62,206 nt of DNA from an uncultured Ruminococcus sp. (GTDB lineage: Bacteria > Bacillota > Clostridia > Oscillospirales > CAG-272). The notes under the pieces are model-generated. The model worked only from the letters and a program-made list of their open reading frames with translations. It was not told the origin of the DNA and did no database searches. Of this stretch, positions 27,025 to 33,596 are shown in pieces. Numbering within the stretch: the stretch's first letter is position 1; each line of letters starts with the position of its first letter. The position numbers and the translations under genes are program-made. The stretch covers positions 1 through 62,206 of the forward strand of contig CAYWFS010000005.1 in NCBI GenBank assembly GCA_964457685.1, in the 5' to 3' direction.

Positions 27025-27321
27025 ATGAATATTGCCCTTATAATATCGGCTGTGCTGTCATTTGCTATCGGTGCGGCGGTTTCTTTTCTGAATTATATTA
27101 TCACATCTGCGATAATGAAAAAGAAGCCGGAGCTGCTTTCGGTCGGAATGGTGGTGCGTCAGGTAATTAACGTGTCTTATCTTGCGGCGGTGTATTTTAT
27201 TTCGTCTGCGATGTTAGACTCCGTTGTTTGTCCGCTTGTAGGTGCGGTCATCGGACTTACCCTCTCAATGTTTCTTTTCACATATCTCCTTGTAAAGAAG
27301 AATGACGAAAGAAATAAATGA
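27025..27321 (+). CDS. AtpI/AtpZ-like small membrane protein, first gene of the atp operon
   Basis: 98 aa with 3 predicted TM helices and a GGGAGG SD. The call rests on position in the operon. Confidence 0.5.
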   Translation: MNIALIISAVLSFAIGAAVSFLNYIITSAIMKKKPELLSVGMVVRQVINVSYLAAVYFISSAMLDSVVCPLVGAVIGLTLSMFLFTYLLVKKNDERNK

Positions 27322-27360: not shown

Positions 27361-28035
27361 ATGGGTGAAAAATCTGAAGTAATAGTCAAAATATTCGGAA
27401 TTTTCGATATCACCGGAGAAGTGCTTGCGATGTTCGCAATATTGCTTCTCACTGCGGTGCTGTCACTCATTGCCACACGAAATATGAAAATGCGACCGGG
27501 CAAGTTTCAGAACATTATGGAATGTGCCGTTGAAGCCCTTGACAACTTTGTTTCGGGAATAATCGGTAAAAAGCTCGGACGTAAATACTTTTTCTTCCTT
27601 GGATCGCTCTTTATTTTCATAATAATGGCGAACTACTCCGGTCTTATCCCCGGAATGGGTCTGACAAAGTATTTCAAGGCTCCCACATCCTCACTTTCGT
27701 GTACACTCGGTCTCGGCATTGCGGCATTCGTATTCTTGCAGGTTGCGGGAATCAAGGCTAACGTAAAGCATTATTTCAAAAAATTCGTCAGCCCCATGTT
27801 CTTCATGCTTCCGCTTTTACTGCTTGACGAGTTTATCAAGCCGGCTTCACTTGCACTCCGTCTTTTCGGTAACGTGTTCGGTGAAGAAACCGTAACGGAA
27901 GAGCTTTACGGCTTACTTCCGATAGGAGTTCCCGTCATTATGATGGTGCTTTCACTTCTGTTCTGTGCAATTCAGGCAGTCGTATTTACCATGCTTGTTT
28001 CGATTTATCTCGAAGAGCAGGTAGGAGAAGAATAA
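27361..28035 (+). CDS. atpB: F0F1 ATP synthase subunit a
   Basis: 224 aa. The essential-Arg helix context LALRLFGNVFGEE is present. Confidence 0.9.
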   Translation: MGEKSEVIVKIFGIFDITGEVLAMFAILLLTAVLSLIATRNMKMRPGKFQNIMECAVEALDNFVSGIIGKKLGRKYFFFLGSLFIFIIMANYSGLIPGMGLTKYFKAPTSSLSCTLGLGIAAFVFLQVAGIKANVKHYFKKFVSPMFFMLPLLLLDEFIKPASLALRLFGNVFGEETVTEELYGLLPIGVPVIMMVLSLLFCAIQAVVFTMLVSIYLEEQVGEE

Positions 28036-28072: not shown

Positions 28073-28303
28073 ATGGAACAGTCAGGACTTATCGCTATCG
28101 CAGCAGCTATCGCTATCGCAGTCAGCACAATTTTCCCCGCAATCGGTCAGGGTATCACATCTAAATCCGCAATGGAAGCTATCGCACGTCAACCCGATGC
28201 AGCAAACAATATCCGTTCCACACTTATCATCGCCCTCGCTCTTATGGAAGCTCTTACCATTTACGGACTTCTTATCGCATTCATTCTTTCTTCCAAGATA
28301 TAA
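28073..28303 (+). CDS. atpE: F0F1 ATP synthase subunit c
   Basis: 76-aa hairpin with the loop ARQPD and the carboxylate in [14 protein letters not shown]. Confidence 0.9.
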
Positions 28304-28349: not shown

Positions 28350-28766
28350 TTGACAATACAGGTGTCGATCCTTGTGTGGACTCTCATATGCTTTGTGCTT
28401 TTCATGCTTATCGTAAACAAGCTTCTTTTTAAGCCTATGCTTGCGATAATAGACGAAAGAAAAGCAAAGATAGAGAATGCCGCACGAAAAAAAGCCGATA
28501 TCGAAGCAACACAGCTCGCCTATGAGAATAATCTCAGAGAAGCCGCAGAAAATGCACGCAGAGCTGAGTCCGAGCTTGCCGATAAAATGCTTGCTGACGC
28601 CGAAATGAAAGCCGAAAATGACATAAAGCAGGCTGAAGAAACAAGTAAACAAAGACTTGCTCTTGCAGTTACCGACGTTGAATTTGAAACAAACGAGATG
28701 GGCGAAAAGCTCAGCGAAAGTGTTGAAGAATTGGCATCGGCATTCATTTCACGTCTGATCTCATAG
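28350..28766 (+). CDS. atpF: F0F1 ATP synthase subunit b
   Basis: 138 aa with a single N-terminal TM helix and then a charged coiled coil. TTG start. Confidence 0.8.
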   Translation: MTIQVSILVWTLICFVLFMLIVNKLLFKPMLAIIDERKAKIENAARKKADIEATQLAYENNLREAAENARRAESELADKMLADAEMKAENDIKQAEETSKQRLALAVTDVEFETNEMGEKLSESVEELASAFISRLIS

Positions 28767-28782
28767 AACGGAACGTATTATC

Positions 28783-31011
28783 ATGCAATTTTTATACGCA
28801 CTGATCAACTTTCTGATACTTGCATTCCTTGTGTGGCTGCTCGGCAGAAAGATGATTGCCTCGATATTCCAAAAGAGGCTGGAAAAAATAAACAAAGAGC
28901 TTGATGAAGCCGAAGAAATAGAGCGAACCGAATACGAGTCTCCCGATCTTCCCGACATACCGCTCAAAACCGACGGTGAAATTACAAAAGTAGCCGAAAA
29001 GAAGATAGAAGCTATCGAACATTCCAAGGAAGAACGCATTGACAATATCAAAAAGCATTGCGATGCCGAAATACTTGAAATGTGCTACGATATTGTATCG
29101 GGAAAAAGAGGGGAGCTTATAGTTAAGGTAAGAGACAGAATCGCCTCTCTCCTTGCAAGTGAGCCTTATCATACGGAGCTTCATGAAAGACTTATAGGTA
29201 TGGCTGACAAAATCCTCGAGTGCATAAAGCTTACTCCCGGTGACATCGCATACCTTAATAACCACGATGTTCTTTACGTTACACTTACCTCCGCAGAGCC
29301 GCTTCCCGATTACATCGTCGAAAAAATAGATGAAAAAACAAAGCAGCTTGTCGGAGAAGTAAACGGAAAGACTTCTCTTTGGGTCAGAGTTGACGAGGAG
29401 CTTATCGGCGGTCTCAGACTCCGTATAGGTGATACCGTTTATGACTCAACAGTTACAAACCATTTGTACAATCTTCAGAAAACTCTCGAAAAGCGTCCCC
29501 TCCATGGTGATGAAACTCCCGAGGAGATAATAGCGGACGTGCTCGAGGGAATATCCTCCATAGACATGGAAATACAGCAGTTCCAGCTCGGACGTGTAAT
29601 CAGCATTTCCGATGGTATCTGTTGGCTTGACGGTCTTGCGGATATAATGTACGGCGAAGTAGTCGAATTCGATTGCGGTGAACGAGGAATGGTTCTCGAT
29701 ATCGAGCATGACAAAATCGGCTGTATAGTATACGGAAGCTATGAGCATATTGAAGCCGGAAGCCGTGTAAGACGTGTGGGCAGAATAGCAAGCGTTTCCG
29801 TTGGTGAAGAGCTTCTTGGACGAGTTGTAGACCCTCTCGGTCATGCACTTGACGGCAGAGGCAGAATCTGGACTAAAGAAAAGCGTCCGATAGAGTTTGC
29901 GGCTCCCTCGATTCCCGACAGAGGTGCGGTATGCCGTCCTATGCACACGGGTATCAAAGCTATCGACGCACTTGTTCCGATAGGAAAGGGTCAGCGTGAG
30001 CTTATCATAGGCGACCGTCAGACAGGTAAATCCTCGATAATCCTCGATACGATAATAAATCAGAGAGGAAACGATACCATCTGTATCTATGTTGCAATAG
30101 GTCAGAAGGATACCACAATCGCAGAGGTAGTTGACAAACTCGAAAAGAACGGTGCCATGAATTATACTACAATAGTGTGTGCTCCTGCTTCAAGCTCGGC
30201 ATCACTCCAGTATATAGCACCGTTTGCGGGAGCGGCAATGGCTGAATACTTTATGTACTCCGGCAGAGACGTTCTTATATTCTACGATGACCTCTCAAAG
30301 CACGCAGTAGCATACCGTGAGCTTTCACTCCTACTTCATAGACCCTCCGGTCGTGAAGCATATCCGGGTGACGTGTTCTACCTCCATTCAAGACTTCTCG
30401 AACGTGCCGCACAGCTGTCCGAAGAGCTTGGTGGCGGTTCAATGACTGCACTTCCCGTAATCGAAACTCAGGCAGGAGATATTTCCGCATATATACCGAC
30501 AAACGTAATTTCCATAACAGACGGTCAGATATTCCTCGAATCCGAGCTGTTCAATGAGGGACAGAGACCGGCGGTCAACGTGGGTCTTTCGGTATCCCGT
30601 GTGGGAAGTGCCGCTCAGACAAAGCTCATGAAGCAGGTATCGGGCAGCCTTAGAATGCGTCTTGCTCAGTACAGAGAGCTTGCGGGATTTGCACAGTTCG
30701 GCTCAGATCTCGACGCAGATACAAAATCGGTTCTTGATTCCGGTAAGCGTATGATGGCGGCTCTCAGACAGGGAAGATTCGCTCCCCTTGAGGACTGGCA
30801 GCAGGCACTTATCATATTTGCACTTTCCGAGGGATTTGCTTCTACAGTTGCCGAAAAAGATATTGCGGATTATGAGCGTGAGCTTTATTCCTATTTTGAA
30901 GCAAACTGCGGAGATATAGTTTCCGAGCTTAAAACAGGTGCTAAAATGTCTCCCGAGCTTATGACAAAAATAAAGAACGCACTCTCCGAAATGGCGAAAG
31001 CAGAGGCATAA
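28783..31011 (+). CDS. atpA: Fused ATP synthase subunit: b-like anchor, delta (OSCP) C-terminal domain and a full alpha subunit
   Basis: Single uninterrupted 742-aa ORF. Residues 1-25 form a b-type TM helix (MQFLYALINFLILAFLVWLLGRKMI) followed by a coiled coil. Residues about 165-235 match the delta C-terminal domain (VTLTSAEPLP...VDEELIGGLRLRIGDTVYDSTVTNHLYNL). Residues from about 245 are a complete alpha (GRVISISDGICWLDGLADIMYGEVVEF..., Walker A GDRQTGKSS). Confidence 0.85.
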   Translation: MQFLYALINFLILAFLVWLLGRKMIASIFQKRLEKINKELDEAEEIERTEYESPDLPDIPLKTDGEITKVAEKKIEAIEHSKEERIDNIKKHCDAEILEMCYDIVSGKRGELIVKVRDRIASLLASEPYHTELHERLIGMADKILECIKLTPGDIAYLNNHDVLYVTLTSAEPLPDYIVEKIDEKTKQLVGEVNGKTSLWVRVDEELIGGLRLRIGDTVYDSTVTNHLYNLQKTLEKRPLHGDETPEEIIADVLEGISSIDMEIQQFQLGRVISISDGICWLDGLADIMYGEVVEFDCGERGMVLDIEHDKIGCIVYGSYEHIEAGSRVRRVGRIASVSVGEELLGRVVDPLGHALDGRGRIWTKEKRPIEFAAPSIPDRGAVCRPMHTGIKAIDALVPIGKGQRELIIGDRQTGKSSIILDTIINQRGNDTICIYVAIGQKDTTIAEVVDKLEKNGAMNYTTIVCAPASSSASLQYIAPFAGAAMAEYFMYSGRDVLIFYDDLSKHAVAYRELSLLLHRPSGREAYPGDVFYLHSRLLERAAQLSEELGGGSMTALPVIETQAGDISAYIPTNVISITDGQIFLESELFNEGQRPAVNVGLSVSRVGSAAQTKLMKQVSGSLRMRLAQYRELAGFAQFGSDLDADTKSVLDSGKRMMAALRQGRFAPLEDWQQALIIFALSEGFASTVAEKDIADYERELYSYFEANCGDIVSELKTGAKMSPELMTKIKNALSEMAKAEA

Positions 31012-31012
31012 T

Positions 31013-33279
<2,267 letters not shown>

Positions 33280-33281
33280 GC

Positions 33282-33596
33282 ATGGAAAACACTACGCAAA
33301 AGAAAATGCTCACAGTCTGCGTTGTAACTCCCTCGGGAGACGAATGCAGCTTTGAATGCGATTCCGTGCAAATGCTTGCTCAGGATAACGAAAAGGGAAA
33401 CGGCGGAGGCTCATTCGGTGTGAGATACGGTCATGCCGATGCACTTGCCGCCCTTGAATGCGGTGAACTGAAAGCATATGTTGACGGAAAGCTTACAATG
33501 TCTCTCATGTGCGGCAGAGGATATGCAAAGATAAAATCCGACCGTGTGACAGTCATTACAGATCATTACGAAATGTCAAACGCTGACAGAACATAA
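33282..33596 (+). CDS. atpC: F0F1 ATP synthase subunit epsilon, beta-sandwich domain only
   Basis: About 104 aa from the ATG at 33282 (a TTG at 33276 is an alternative). The protein ends a few residues after the last beta strand (VTVITDHYE), so there is no C-terminal helical hairpin. Confidence 0.8.
   Translation: MENTTQKKMLTVCVVTPSGDECSFECDSVQMLAQDNEKGNGGGSFGVRYGHADALAALECGELKAYVDGKLTMSLMCGRGYAKIKSDRVTVITDHYEMSNADRT

Follow-up and report, generated by a model that had tools for sequence, protein, structure and literature searches.

A b'-delta-C-alpha fusion polypeptide in an F-type ATP synthase operon of an uncultured Ruminococcus sp. and the three-stalk enzyme that it may form

An F-type ATP synthase operon located in a 62,206-nucleotide stretch of DNA from an uncultured Ruminococcus sp. 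(contig CAYWFS010000005.1 of assembly GCA_964457685.1, positions 1 to 62,206; the whole of this stretch is called the window) contains a single unbroken open reading frame (ORF) of 742 amino acids (28783..31011, + strand, as all features of the window mentioned below) in which a membrane arm of the subunit b type (b'), the C-terminal domain of subunit delta (delta-C) and a complete F1 alpha subunit follow one another. We propose that this b'-deltaC-alpha polypeptide serves as alpha in a second F-type ATP synthase of the organism, and that a membrane-anchored b' helix and a delta-C domain come with each of the three alphas. Since F1 needs three alphas and no free alpha would be available, three fused alphas would entail three b'/delta-C arms, and the free b subunit of 138 amino acids encoded in the same operon would pair with each b', rendering three b/b' peripheral stalks per enzyme. 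We assign a probability of about 0.55 to this reading, that is, to an obligate three-stalk F-type enzyme in which all three alphas are the fused polypeptide and each b' is paired with a free b.

According to textbooks, an F-type ATP synthase has one peripheral stalk and one a subunit. A previous reading of the window made from the sequence alone had asked how a fusion of this kind can be reconciled with three alphas, one delta and one stalk per enzyme, which was the right question to raise. It had suggested three solutions, namely three tethered stalks, one fused copy incorporated alongside free alpha, or free alpha made from an internal start.

Profile searches divide the fusion into the three parts (a b-like anchor, the delta C-terminal domain and a complete alpha) that the sequence-only reading had described. 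Pfam places ATP-synt_ab_N (PF02874) at residues 270-333, ATP-synt_ab (PF00006) at 390-605 and ATP-synt_ab_C (PF00306) at 612-736, and the NCBIfam atpA profile TIGR00962 matches residues 246-740 with its positions 4-500 of 503 (725.9 bits, the cut-off being 484.45). By this full-length match and by its place between the stalk genes and atpG in an atp operon with beta, gamma and epsilon, an arrangement shared by 55 or more of 71 related loci, the stretch from residue 246 to residue 742 and the stop codon (29518..31011) is an F1 alpha, complete with its N-terminal helix, beta-barrel, P-loop (GDRQTGKS) and C-terminal bundle. Residues 161-237 (29263..29493) are the C-terminal alpha/beta domain of delta/OSCP only, the part of that subunit to which the C-terminus of b binds. 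The OSCP profile (PF00213) matches residues 160-235 with its positions 99-172 of 172 (47.5 bits, cut-off 22.3), and the assignment is also given by Foldseek and by the alignment to the delta part of the engineered fusion 9jc1_I, which is described below. The two parts are joined by an eight-residue linker, RPLHGDET (residues 238-245, 29494..29517), that contains neither a stop nor a conserved start codon.

The first part of the fusion, residues 1-125 (28783..29157), consists of a b'-type transmembrane (TM) helix and a stalk helix. ATP-synt_B (PF00430) matches residues 3-47 with 29.8 bits, a marginal score given its cut-off of 28. When a profile of fusion residues 1-162 was compared with a profile of the free b subunit, residues 3-123 were collinear with positions 8-128 of 138 (hhalign probability 97%, E 9.4e-11, 117 columns). 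Because of this collinearity, the first part is identified at the profile level as a paralogue of b (hence b'), which has the same length as its presumed free-b partner. An AlphaFold2 (AF2) model of the N-terminal 300 residues, with a predicted local distance difference test (pLDDT) score of 80.6, shows a TM helix at residues 2-24 that extends to residue 48, a disordered proline-rich hinge (49-66) and a helix of about 60 residues (66-125); the helices of the b' part reach pLDDT values of 88-95. They are followed by three short helices (126-160), the delta-C alpha/beta domain (163-237), the eight-residue linker and the alpha N-terminal helix (246-258). The fold search was restricted to this N-terminal model, since the model of the full-length chain (pLDDT 68) was of insufficient quality in the alpha body. 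Its top match in the PDB, obtained with Foldseek, was the mycobacterial b-delta fusion, and matches to bacterial delta, mitochondrial OSCP, 9jc1 and V-ATPase subunit E were also found.

Delta's N-terminal domain is absent from the fusion. Positions 1-98 of the OSCP profile are unmatched, and the delta profile TIGR01145 scores 37.1 bits on the fusion, under its cut-off of 57.5. Since residues 3-123 align to b and only about 37 residues are left ahead of delta-C, there is no room for the roughly 100 residues of this domain, a helical bundle that caps the alpha3beta3 crown in other enzymes. A diverged N-domain hidden in residues 60-160 was also considered and rejected, as the stretch is collinear with subunit b and is modelled as a long helix. 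The domain that had seemed unrecognisable is therefore truly absent by profile search, by the hhalign alignment to b and by the helical AF2 model, but the rationale offered for its loss, namely that the covalent link replaces the clamp normally provided by the N-domain, needs adjusting. According to the papers on the engineered Bacillus PS3 enzyme and on Chloroflexus discussed below, the N-domain limits the number of stalks. It normally sits on the three-fold axis, restricting F1 to one stalk, and its loss would permit three.

Between the stalk helix and delta-C, residues 126-160 (29158..29262) form a conserved segment of short helices (EPY...LTPGDxAYL). These 35 residues (EPY...I..I.LTPGD.AYL..HD) are strongly conserved but have no profile assignment; E127, I144, T151, G153, D154 and Y157 are invariant. 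The segment may be the equivalent of the C-terminal contact of b or of the delta-linker contact.

The closest known design is an engineered one. In a Bacillus PS3 FoF1 construct, delta residues 2-104 were deleted and residues 105-178 were fused to the alpha N-terminus (PMC12229609; PDB 9JC1; Nat Commun 2025). This deltaΔN-alpha enzyme carried up to three b2 stalks as seen by cryo-electron microscopy, each with an a subunit, and two on average as judged by denaturing gel electrophoresis (SDS-PAGE); its H+/ATP ratio was 5.8 vs 3.0 and its equilibrium proton-motive force (pmf) was halved. Its authors conclude that the delta N-domain is what restricts F1 to one stalk, and they predict that multi-stalk enzymes occur in nature on the basis of a few deltaΔN-alpha fusions (D2RLW6 of Acidaminococcus fermentans and two further UniProt entries, G4Q3K6 and A0A1I2C5T3), for which they call a multi-stalk structure 'highly likely' (PMC12229609).

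Chain I of this structure (9jc1, 'ATP synthase delta subunit, ATP synthase subunit alpha') is the top PDB match to fusion residues 151-742, with 613 bits. The alignment runs unbroken through delta-C, the linker and alpha, the linker lengths differing by one residue. At the junction the natural EKRPLHGDETP is aligned with the engineered IGG-SGGSIRA and, over a longer stretch, the natural LEKRPLHGDETPEEI with LIGG-SGGSIRAEEI. The N-terminal model superposes on 9jc1 at 3.3 A over 114 columns (Foldseek). Both polypeptides lack the delta N-domain and have delta-C joined to the alpha N-terminus by a short linker, and in both enzymes the C-terminal domain of epsilon is absent, the engineers having removed theirs. 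Unlike the PS3 construct, the window fusion carries a b-type TM and stalk helix ahead of delta-C; its stalks would be b/b' heterodimers instead of a non-covalently bound b2, and the number of stalk arms would be set genetically at three. Among the three solutions proposed for the stoichiometry, it is the three tethered stalks that this collinearity with 9JC1 now supports best.

The engineered enzyme suggests by analogy that an a subunit is probably held against the c-ring by each stalk. With more than one a subunit, the H+/ATP ratio would be multiplied and coupling at low pmf would become possible. The full version of this reading, with three stalks and three a subunits on one c-ring, is a possibility that we hold more tentatively than the three stalks themselves. 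A natural enzyme with more than one stalk is already known, the Chloroflexus aurantiacus F1Fo, which has two stalks and two a subunits (PMC12002316; PNAS 2025; PDB 9ITJ and others). There the additional stalk and a subunit are linked to a reduced delta N-domain; the same features are predicted for the window enzyme from its genes. Unlike the window fusion, the Chloroflexus delta is a separate protein whose shortened N-domain dimerises to give two stalks, and nothing is fused to alpha or b.

The number of a subunits could also remain at one. The fusion sets the number of stalk arms and not that of a subunits, the fused operon has a single atpB, and the Thermus V/A-ATPase combines two stalks with one a subunit (cited in PMC12002316). 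The two other b/b' stalks would then be purely mechanical tethers whose TM helices lie unbound in the lipid, leaving H+/ATP unchanged, a role in line with a 2026 preprint (10.64898/2026.10.01.756066) which argues that extra stalks provide mechanical stability. However, every stalk observed in the engineered enzyme stayed bound to an a subunit, both Chloroflexus stalks carry one, and the TM helices of F-type b subunits are the binding site for a. We therefore consider a three-stalk enzyme with a single a subunit unlikely.

With respect to the reality of the fusion, the survey of related genomes that the sequence-only reading had called for was carried out. A search with fusion residues 1-250 retrieved 1,010 proteins at E<=1e-3; nearly all of them are 730-760 amino acids long and have the same five Pfam domains, and identity in the N-terminal part falls to 43%. 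In a scan of species-representative genomes, 346 loci encode a relative of the fusion, and the best 80 cover residues 1-300 where the contig allows. The carriers found are all uncultured gut or rumen metagenome-assembled genomes (MAGs), labelled Acutalibacteraceae, Oscillospiraceae, Ca. Fimenecus, 'Ruminococcus' or Clostridia. From independent assemblies, 71 full-length loci of the window type (type A hereafter) were extracted. A free b gene of about 140-150 codons lies directly upstream of the fusion in all 71, and the complete order (atpI-like, a, c, b, fusion, gamma, beta, epsilon) is present in 65 of them. An assembly or sequencing artefact that merged atpF', a truncated atpH and atpA might be suspected in a 98-contig draft genome. 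It is rejected, because the frame stays open across this wide divergence: about 1,000 non-identical proteins and the 71 full-length loci, from hundreds of independent assemblies, carry substitutions in the same frame but no stop. We give it practically no weight.

A second group of explanations would release free alpha from the fusion. The sequence-only reading had located a GAGGAG at 29521-29526, an in-frame GTG at 29539, 12 nucleotides past it, and an in-frame ATG at 29566, and these coordinates are correct. The junction was analysed in a codon-level alignment of 50 non-redundant relatives, in which start codons and pairing with the anti-Shine-Dalgarno (anti-SD) sequence were scored per codon. 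The GTG site (residue 253) is occupied by L, C, M, I, V or F and the ATG site (residue 262) by V, M, P or Y, and no codon of the junction is of the start type in more than 26% of the relatives. Anti-SD energies upstream of the junction codons range from -1.3 to -4.4, which is background level (the ORF-wide mean is -2.2, with a standard deviation of 1.75, and the true start has -5.3). A start codon and an SD sequence occur together in at most 0.10 of the sequences at the junction, whereas at codon 303, which lies in the beta-barrel, 0.46 is reached by chance. Internal initiation at GTG 29539 or ATG 29566 has, then, neither conservation nor a signal over background, and the suggestion that free alpha is made from an internal start is not supported.

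Release by proteolysis at the RPLxGDE linker would have the same outcome as internal initiation, that is, a normal alpha3 and one stalk formed by an intact fusion or by a cleaved b'-deltaC. Besides the two codons and the GAGGAG, it can be said for such release that Met is frequent near position 260 (27/50), that the linker motif [KR]-x-[LV]-x-G-[DN]-E is fairly conserved, and that related operons of another type (type C, see below) encode a free delta-C and a free alpha. On the other hand, start codons at the junction do not exceed a frequency of 0.26 at any codon and SD energies stay at background, a start at residues 253-262 would take away the N-terminal helix of alpha, a conserved element of the fusion, and no protease motif was identified at the linker. 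Release of free alpha appears to us less probable still than a three-stalk enzyme with one a subunit.

Free alpha might also come from another operon. The source genome (G000; 1.92 Mb, 98 contigs, about 90% complete) does contain a second atp operon, for which the sequence-only reading had advised looking. It lies on contig C33, is of the canonical F type and comprises atpF (165 amino acids), atpH, atpA (515 amino acids), atpG, atpD (beta, 465 amino acids) and atpC. Its atpH encodes a full-length delta of 176 amino acids that matches OSCP positions 2-172 with 128.6 bits. Thus, the statement that there is no separate atpH holds for the fused operon but not for the organism. Canonical F-type operons accompany the fused one in G049, G024 and G090 as well, so that mixed complexes of one fused and two free alphas could be imagined in these four genomes. 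By contrast, the fused gene and one beta are the only alpha/beta-type ATPase genes in G058 (96% complete) and G112, which belong to the same GTDB family, and G002, G022 and G044 have, besides the fused operon, a V/A-type enzyme only. Since some genomes have no other alpha, which lends indirect support to a multi-stalk complex, the fused operon must work on its own; a supply of free alpha or delta from elsewhere is available in the source genome but fails as a general solution in G058, G112 and others, and one fused copy alongside free alpha is not generally possible. Moreover, the fused and the C33 alphas are 54% identical, and the c subunits of the two operons, apparently of different ion specificity, suggest separate enzymes. 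We regard mixed complexes as very improbable.

The source organism may indeed use different coupling ions for its two ATP synthases. Na+-binding c subunits carry a Ser/Thr ligand next to the ion-binding Glu. In the type A c subunits no Ser/Thr stands next to the Glu; the ion-site motif is kept in 69 type A loci, and the Ala-rich helix 1 reads IAxAAAxAIA. Judged by published motifs, the c subunit of the fused operon (28073-28303), with its GQG motif and Ala-rich helix 1, looks H+-type, and this helix may point to a larger ring. The C33 c subunit (L008 4619-4891; GIGEG...AIAETTGIYGF) resembles the Na+ two-carboxylate motif. An RnfD gene is present on contig C38 (9561-10508; PF03116, 392 bits). 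The organism probably has an Rnf ion pump, which could energise one or both ATP synthases.

The remaining genes of the fused operon complete an F-type set in the order atpI-like, atpB, atpE, atpF, fusion, atpG, atpD, atpC, and the ORF list and Pfam agree with the earlier description of one 742-residue ORF between atpF and atpG. The gene in the atpI position encodes a small membrane protein of 98 amino acids (27025..27321, an ORF call) in which no Pfam family scored above its cut-off; a homologue heads 65 of the 71 type A operons. It is followed by atpB (Fo subunit a, 224 amino acids, 27361..28035; PF00119 ATP-synt_A, 149.6 bits), by atpE (subunit c, 76 amino acids, 28073..28303; PF00137, 66.7 bits), with the Ala-rich helix 1 and a Glu-containing ion site, and by atpF (28350..28766), the free b of 138 amino acids that is the presumed partner of the fused b' arm and that PF00430 matches over its full length (51.4 bits). 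Downstream of the fusion are atpG (gamma, 281 amino acids, 31013..31858; PF00231, 206.4 bits), atpD (beta, 466 amino acids, 31879..33279; PF00006, 242.9 bits) and atpC (epsilon, 106 amino acids, 33276..33596). The latter has PF02823 as its sole match and consists of the beta-sandwich only, the C-terminal inhibitory helices being absent. In type A operons (58 of 58 loci) epsilon stops where the beta-sandwich ends; a C-terminal tail of 46-56 amino acids is retained in types B, C and D, which are defined below. Epsilon is also short (86-101 amino acids) in the canonical operon of the source genus (L008 10101-10361; L099).

Other natural systems share single features with the fusion. The mycobacterial b-delta fusion (7y5b chain d, 7nkd) also has a b-type TM helix and stalk fused to delta. 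However, mycobacterial delta is full-length and even extended, keeps its N-domain, is not fused to alpha and serves a single stalk. The corresponding family, NF009961, scores 27.3 bits on the window fusion against a cut-off of 328, over the last 50 residues only, and was rejected, the N-domain being absent and alpha being fused. The b subunit of N-ATPases (about 245 amino acids) is likewise a b followed by delta-C only, and its profile TIGR03321 gives a weak full-length match (fusion residues 7-233 to profile positions 12-243). Membership in the N-ATPases was rejected on this score (22 bits, cut-off 224.7) and on the canonical F-type order of the fused operon; in N-ATPase operons the gene order differs and there are additional small genes, and their b-deltaC is not fused to alpha.

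At the level of the fold, the N-terminal model is also analogous to subunit E of the A/V-type EG stalks, a long helix whose C-terminal globular head attaches to the non-catalytic subunit. In this analogy the free short b would play the part of G, and the EG stalks of V-ATPases, which attach to the non-catalytic B subunits, are three in number. Unlike the window fusion, neither E nor G possesses a TM helix or is joined to B, and the stalks of V-type enzymes converge on one a subunit and a collar.

The relationship between delta and alpha varies within the bacterial family and beyond it. Surveys with the OSCP profile, which covered 121 genomes from this family and 300 from the class and were followed by dissection of the operons, distinguished a canonical state with a free full-length delta and four modified ones. 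Type A, present in the window, has the b'-delta-C-alpha fusion of about 740 amino acids and a free b. Two other types occur in the same family: type B combines a delta-C-alpha fusion of about 600 amino acids with a single b of about 180 amino acids, as in the engineered design, and type C has a free-standing delta-C of about 80-120 amino acids adjoining a normal alpha. For instance, L011 (G072), L012 (G035), L013 (G009) and L018 (G091) are type C loci with an N-domain-less delta-C frame of 77-119 amino acids between b and alpha, and G072 has no other rotary ATPase. In type D, found in other families of Clostridia, a near-full-length delta is fused to alpha (668-691 amino acids). It is carried by L104 (G139), L105 (G281), L106 (G165), L107 (G383) and L111 (G317), which match the OSCP profile from about position 10-35 to position 172. 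Since these fusions keep the N-domain, they pose a sharper problem of three alphas and one delta than the window fusion does. In another Clostridia family, the canonical F-type operon of L114 (G145; 1317-2257) contains three c-subunit genes in tandem.

When the alpha domains were placed in a maximum-likelihood tree, type A came out as monophyletic (100/100), with a long stem, and as sister to a mixed clade of types B and D (86/92). All operons with a modified delta cluster away from the canonical operons that those genomes carry (90/99). Because of this placement, the tree identifies the window operon as part of an old, separate F-type lineage with a labile relationship between delta and alpha.

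Several points weigh against a three-stalk enzyme. Its three stalks are predicted from genes, and every carrier found is an uncultured MAG. The stalks of the engineered PS3 enzyme are sub-stoichiometric, averaging two (PMC12229609). Since other Clostridia have delta-alpha fusions with the N-domain retained, fusion to alpha is by itself no proof of a multi-stalk design. The c-ring would have to accommodate three a subunits and six b-type TM helices. The full-chain AF2 model is mediocre (pLDDT 68). Finally, Met occurs near position 260 in 27 of 50 relatives and start codons reach 26% in the codon-level analysis; proteolytic cleavage at the junction or non-canonical initiation would be compatible with the sequence.

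To our knowledge, no natural deltaΔN-alpha fusion enzyme has been studied so far. The idea that such natural fusions imply multiple stalks was already published in 2025-2026 and is not categorically new. The October 2026 preprint describes b-delta and delta-alpha fusions with a shortened delta and notes that the N-ATPase b ends in a delta-C-like part (10.64898/2026.10.01.756066). A b-delta-alpha triple fusion is not described in the searchable literature, including PMC12229609, PMC12002316 and that preprint. As far as this literature shows, the covalent b' arm, the wide occurrence in gut and rumen bacteria and the series of intermediates within one family are undescribed.

If the arm is indeed fused to every alpha, the number of three stalk arms per complex would be set by the gene and not by binding equilibria, which would make this family an unusually clean natural test case, and one that yields a sharp and easily testable prediction. 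The four states of delta and alpha in a single family (free delta-C, delta-C-alpha, b'-delta-C-alpha and canonical) offer a ready evolutionary series. Were the full version of the reading true, H+/ATP would be ten or more, equal to the number of c subunits, and no natural rotary ATPase would have a higher coupling ratio, and an F-type enzyme would have converged on the three-EG-stalk layout of V-ATPases and become widespread in gut and rumen Oscillospirales. Since the type A family occurs in hundreds of uncultured species of gut and rumen, in some cases as the sole rotary ATPase, such an enzyme would bear on how these fermenters keep ATP and ion gradients in balance when the membrane potential is low.

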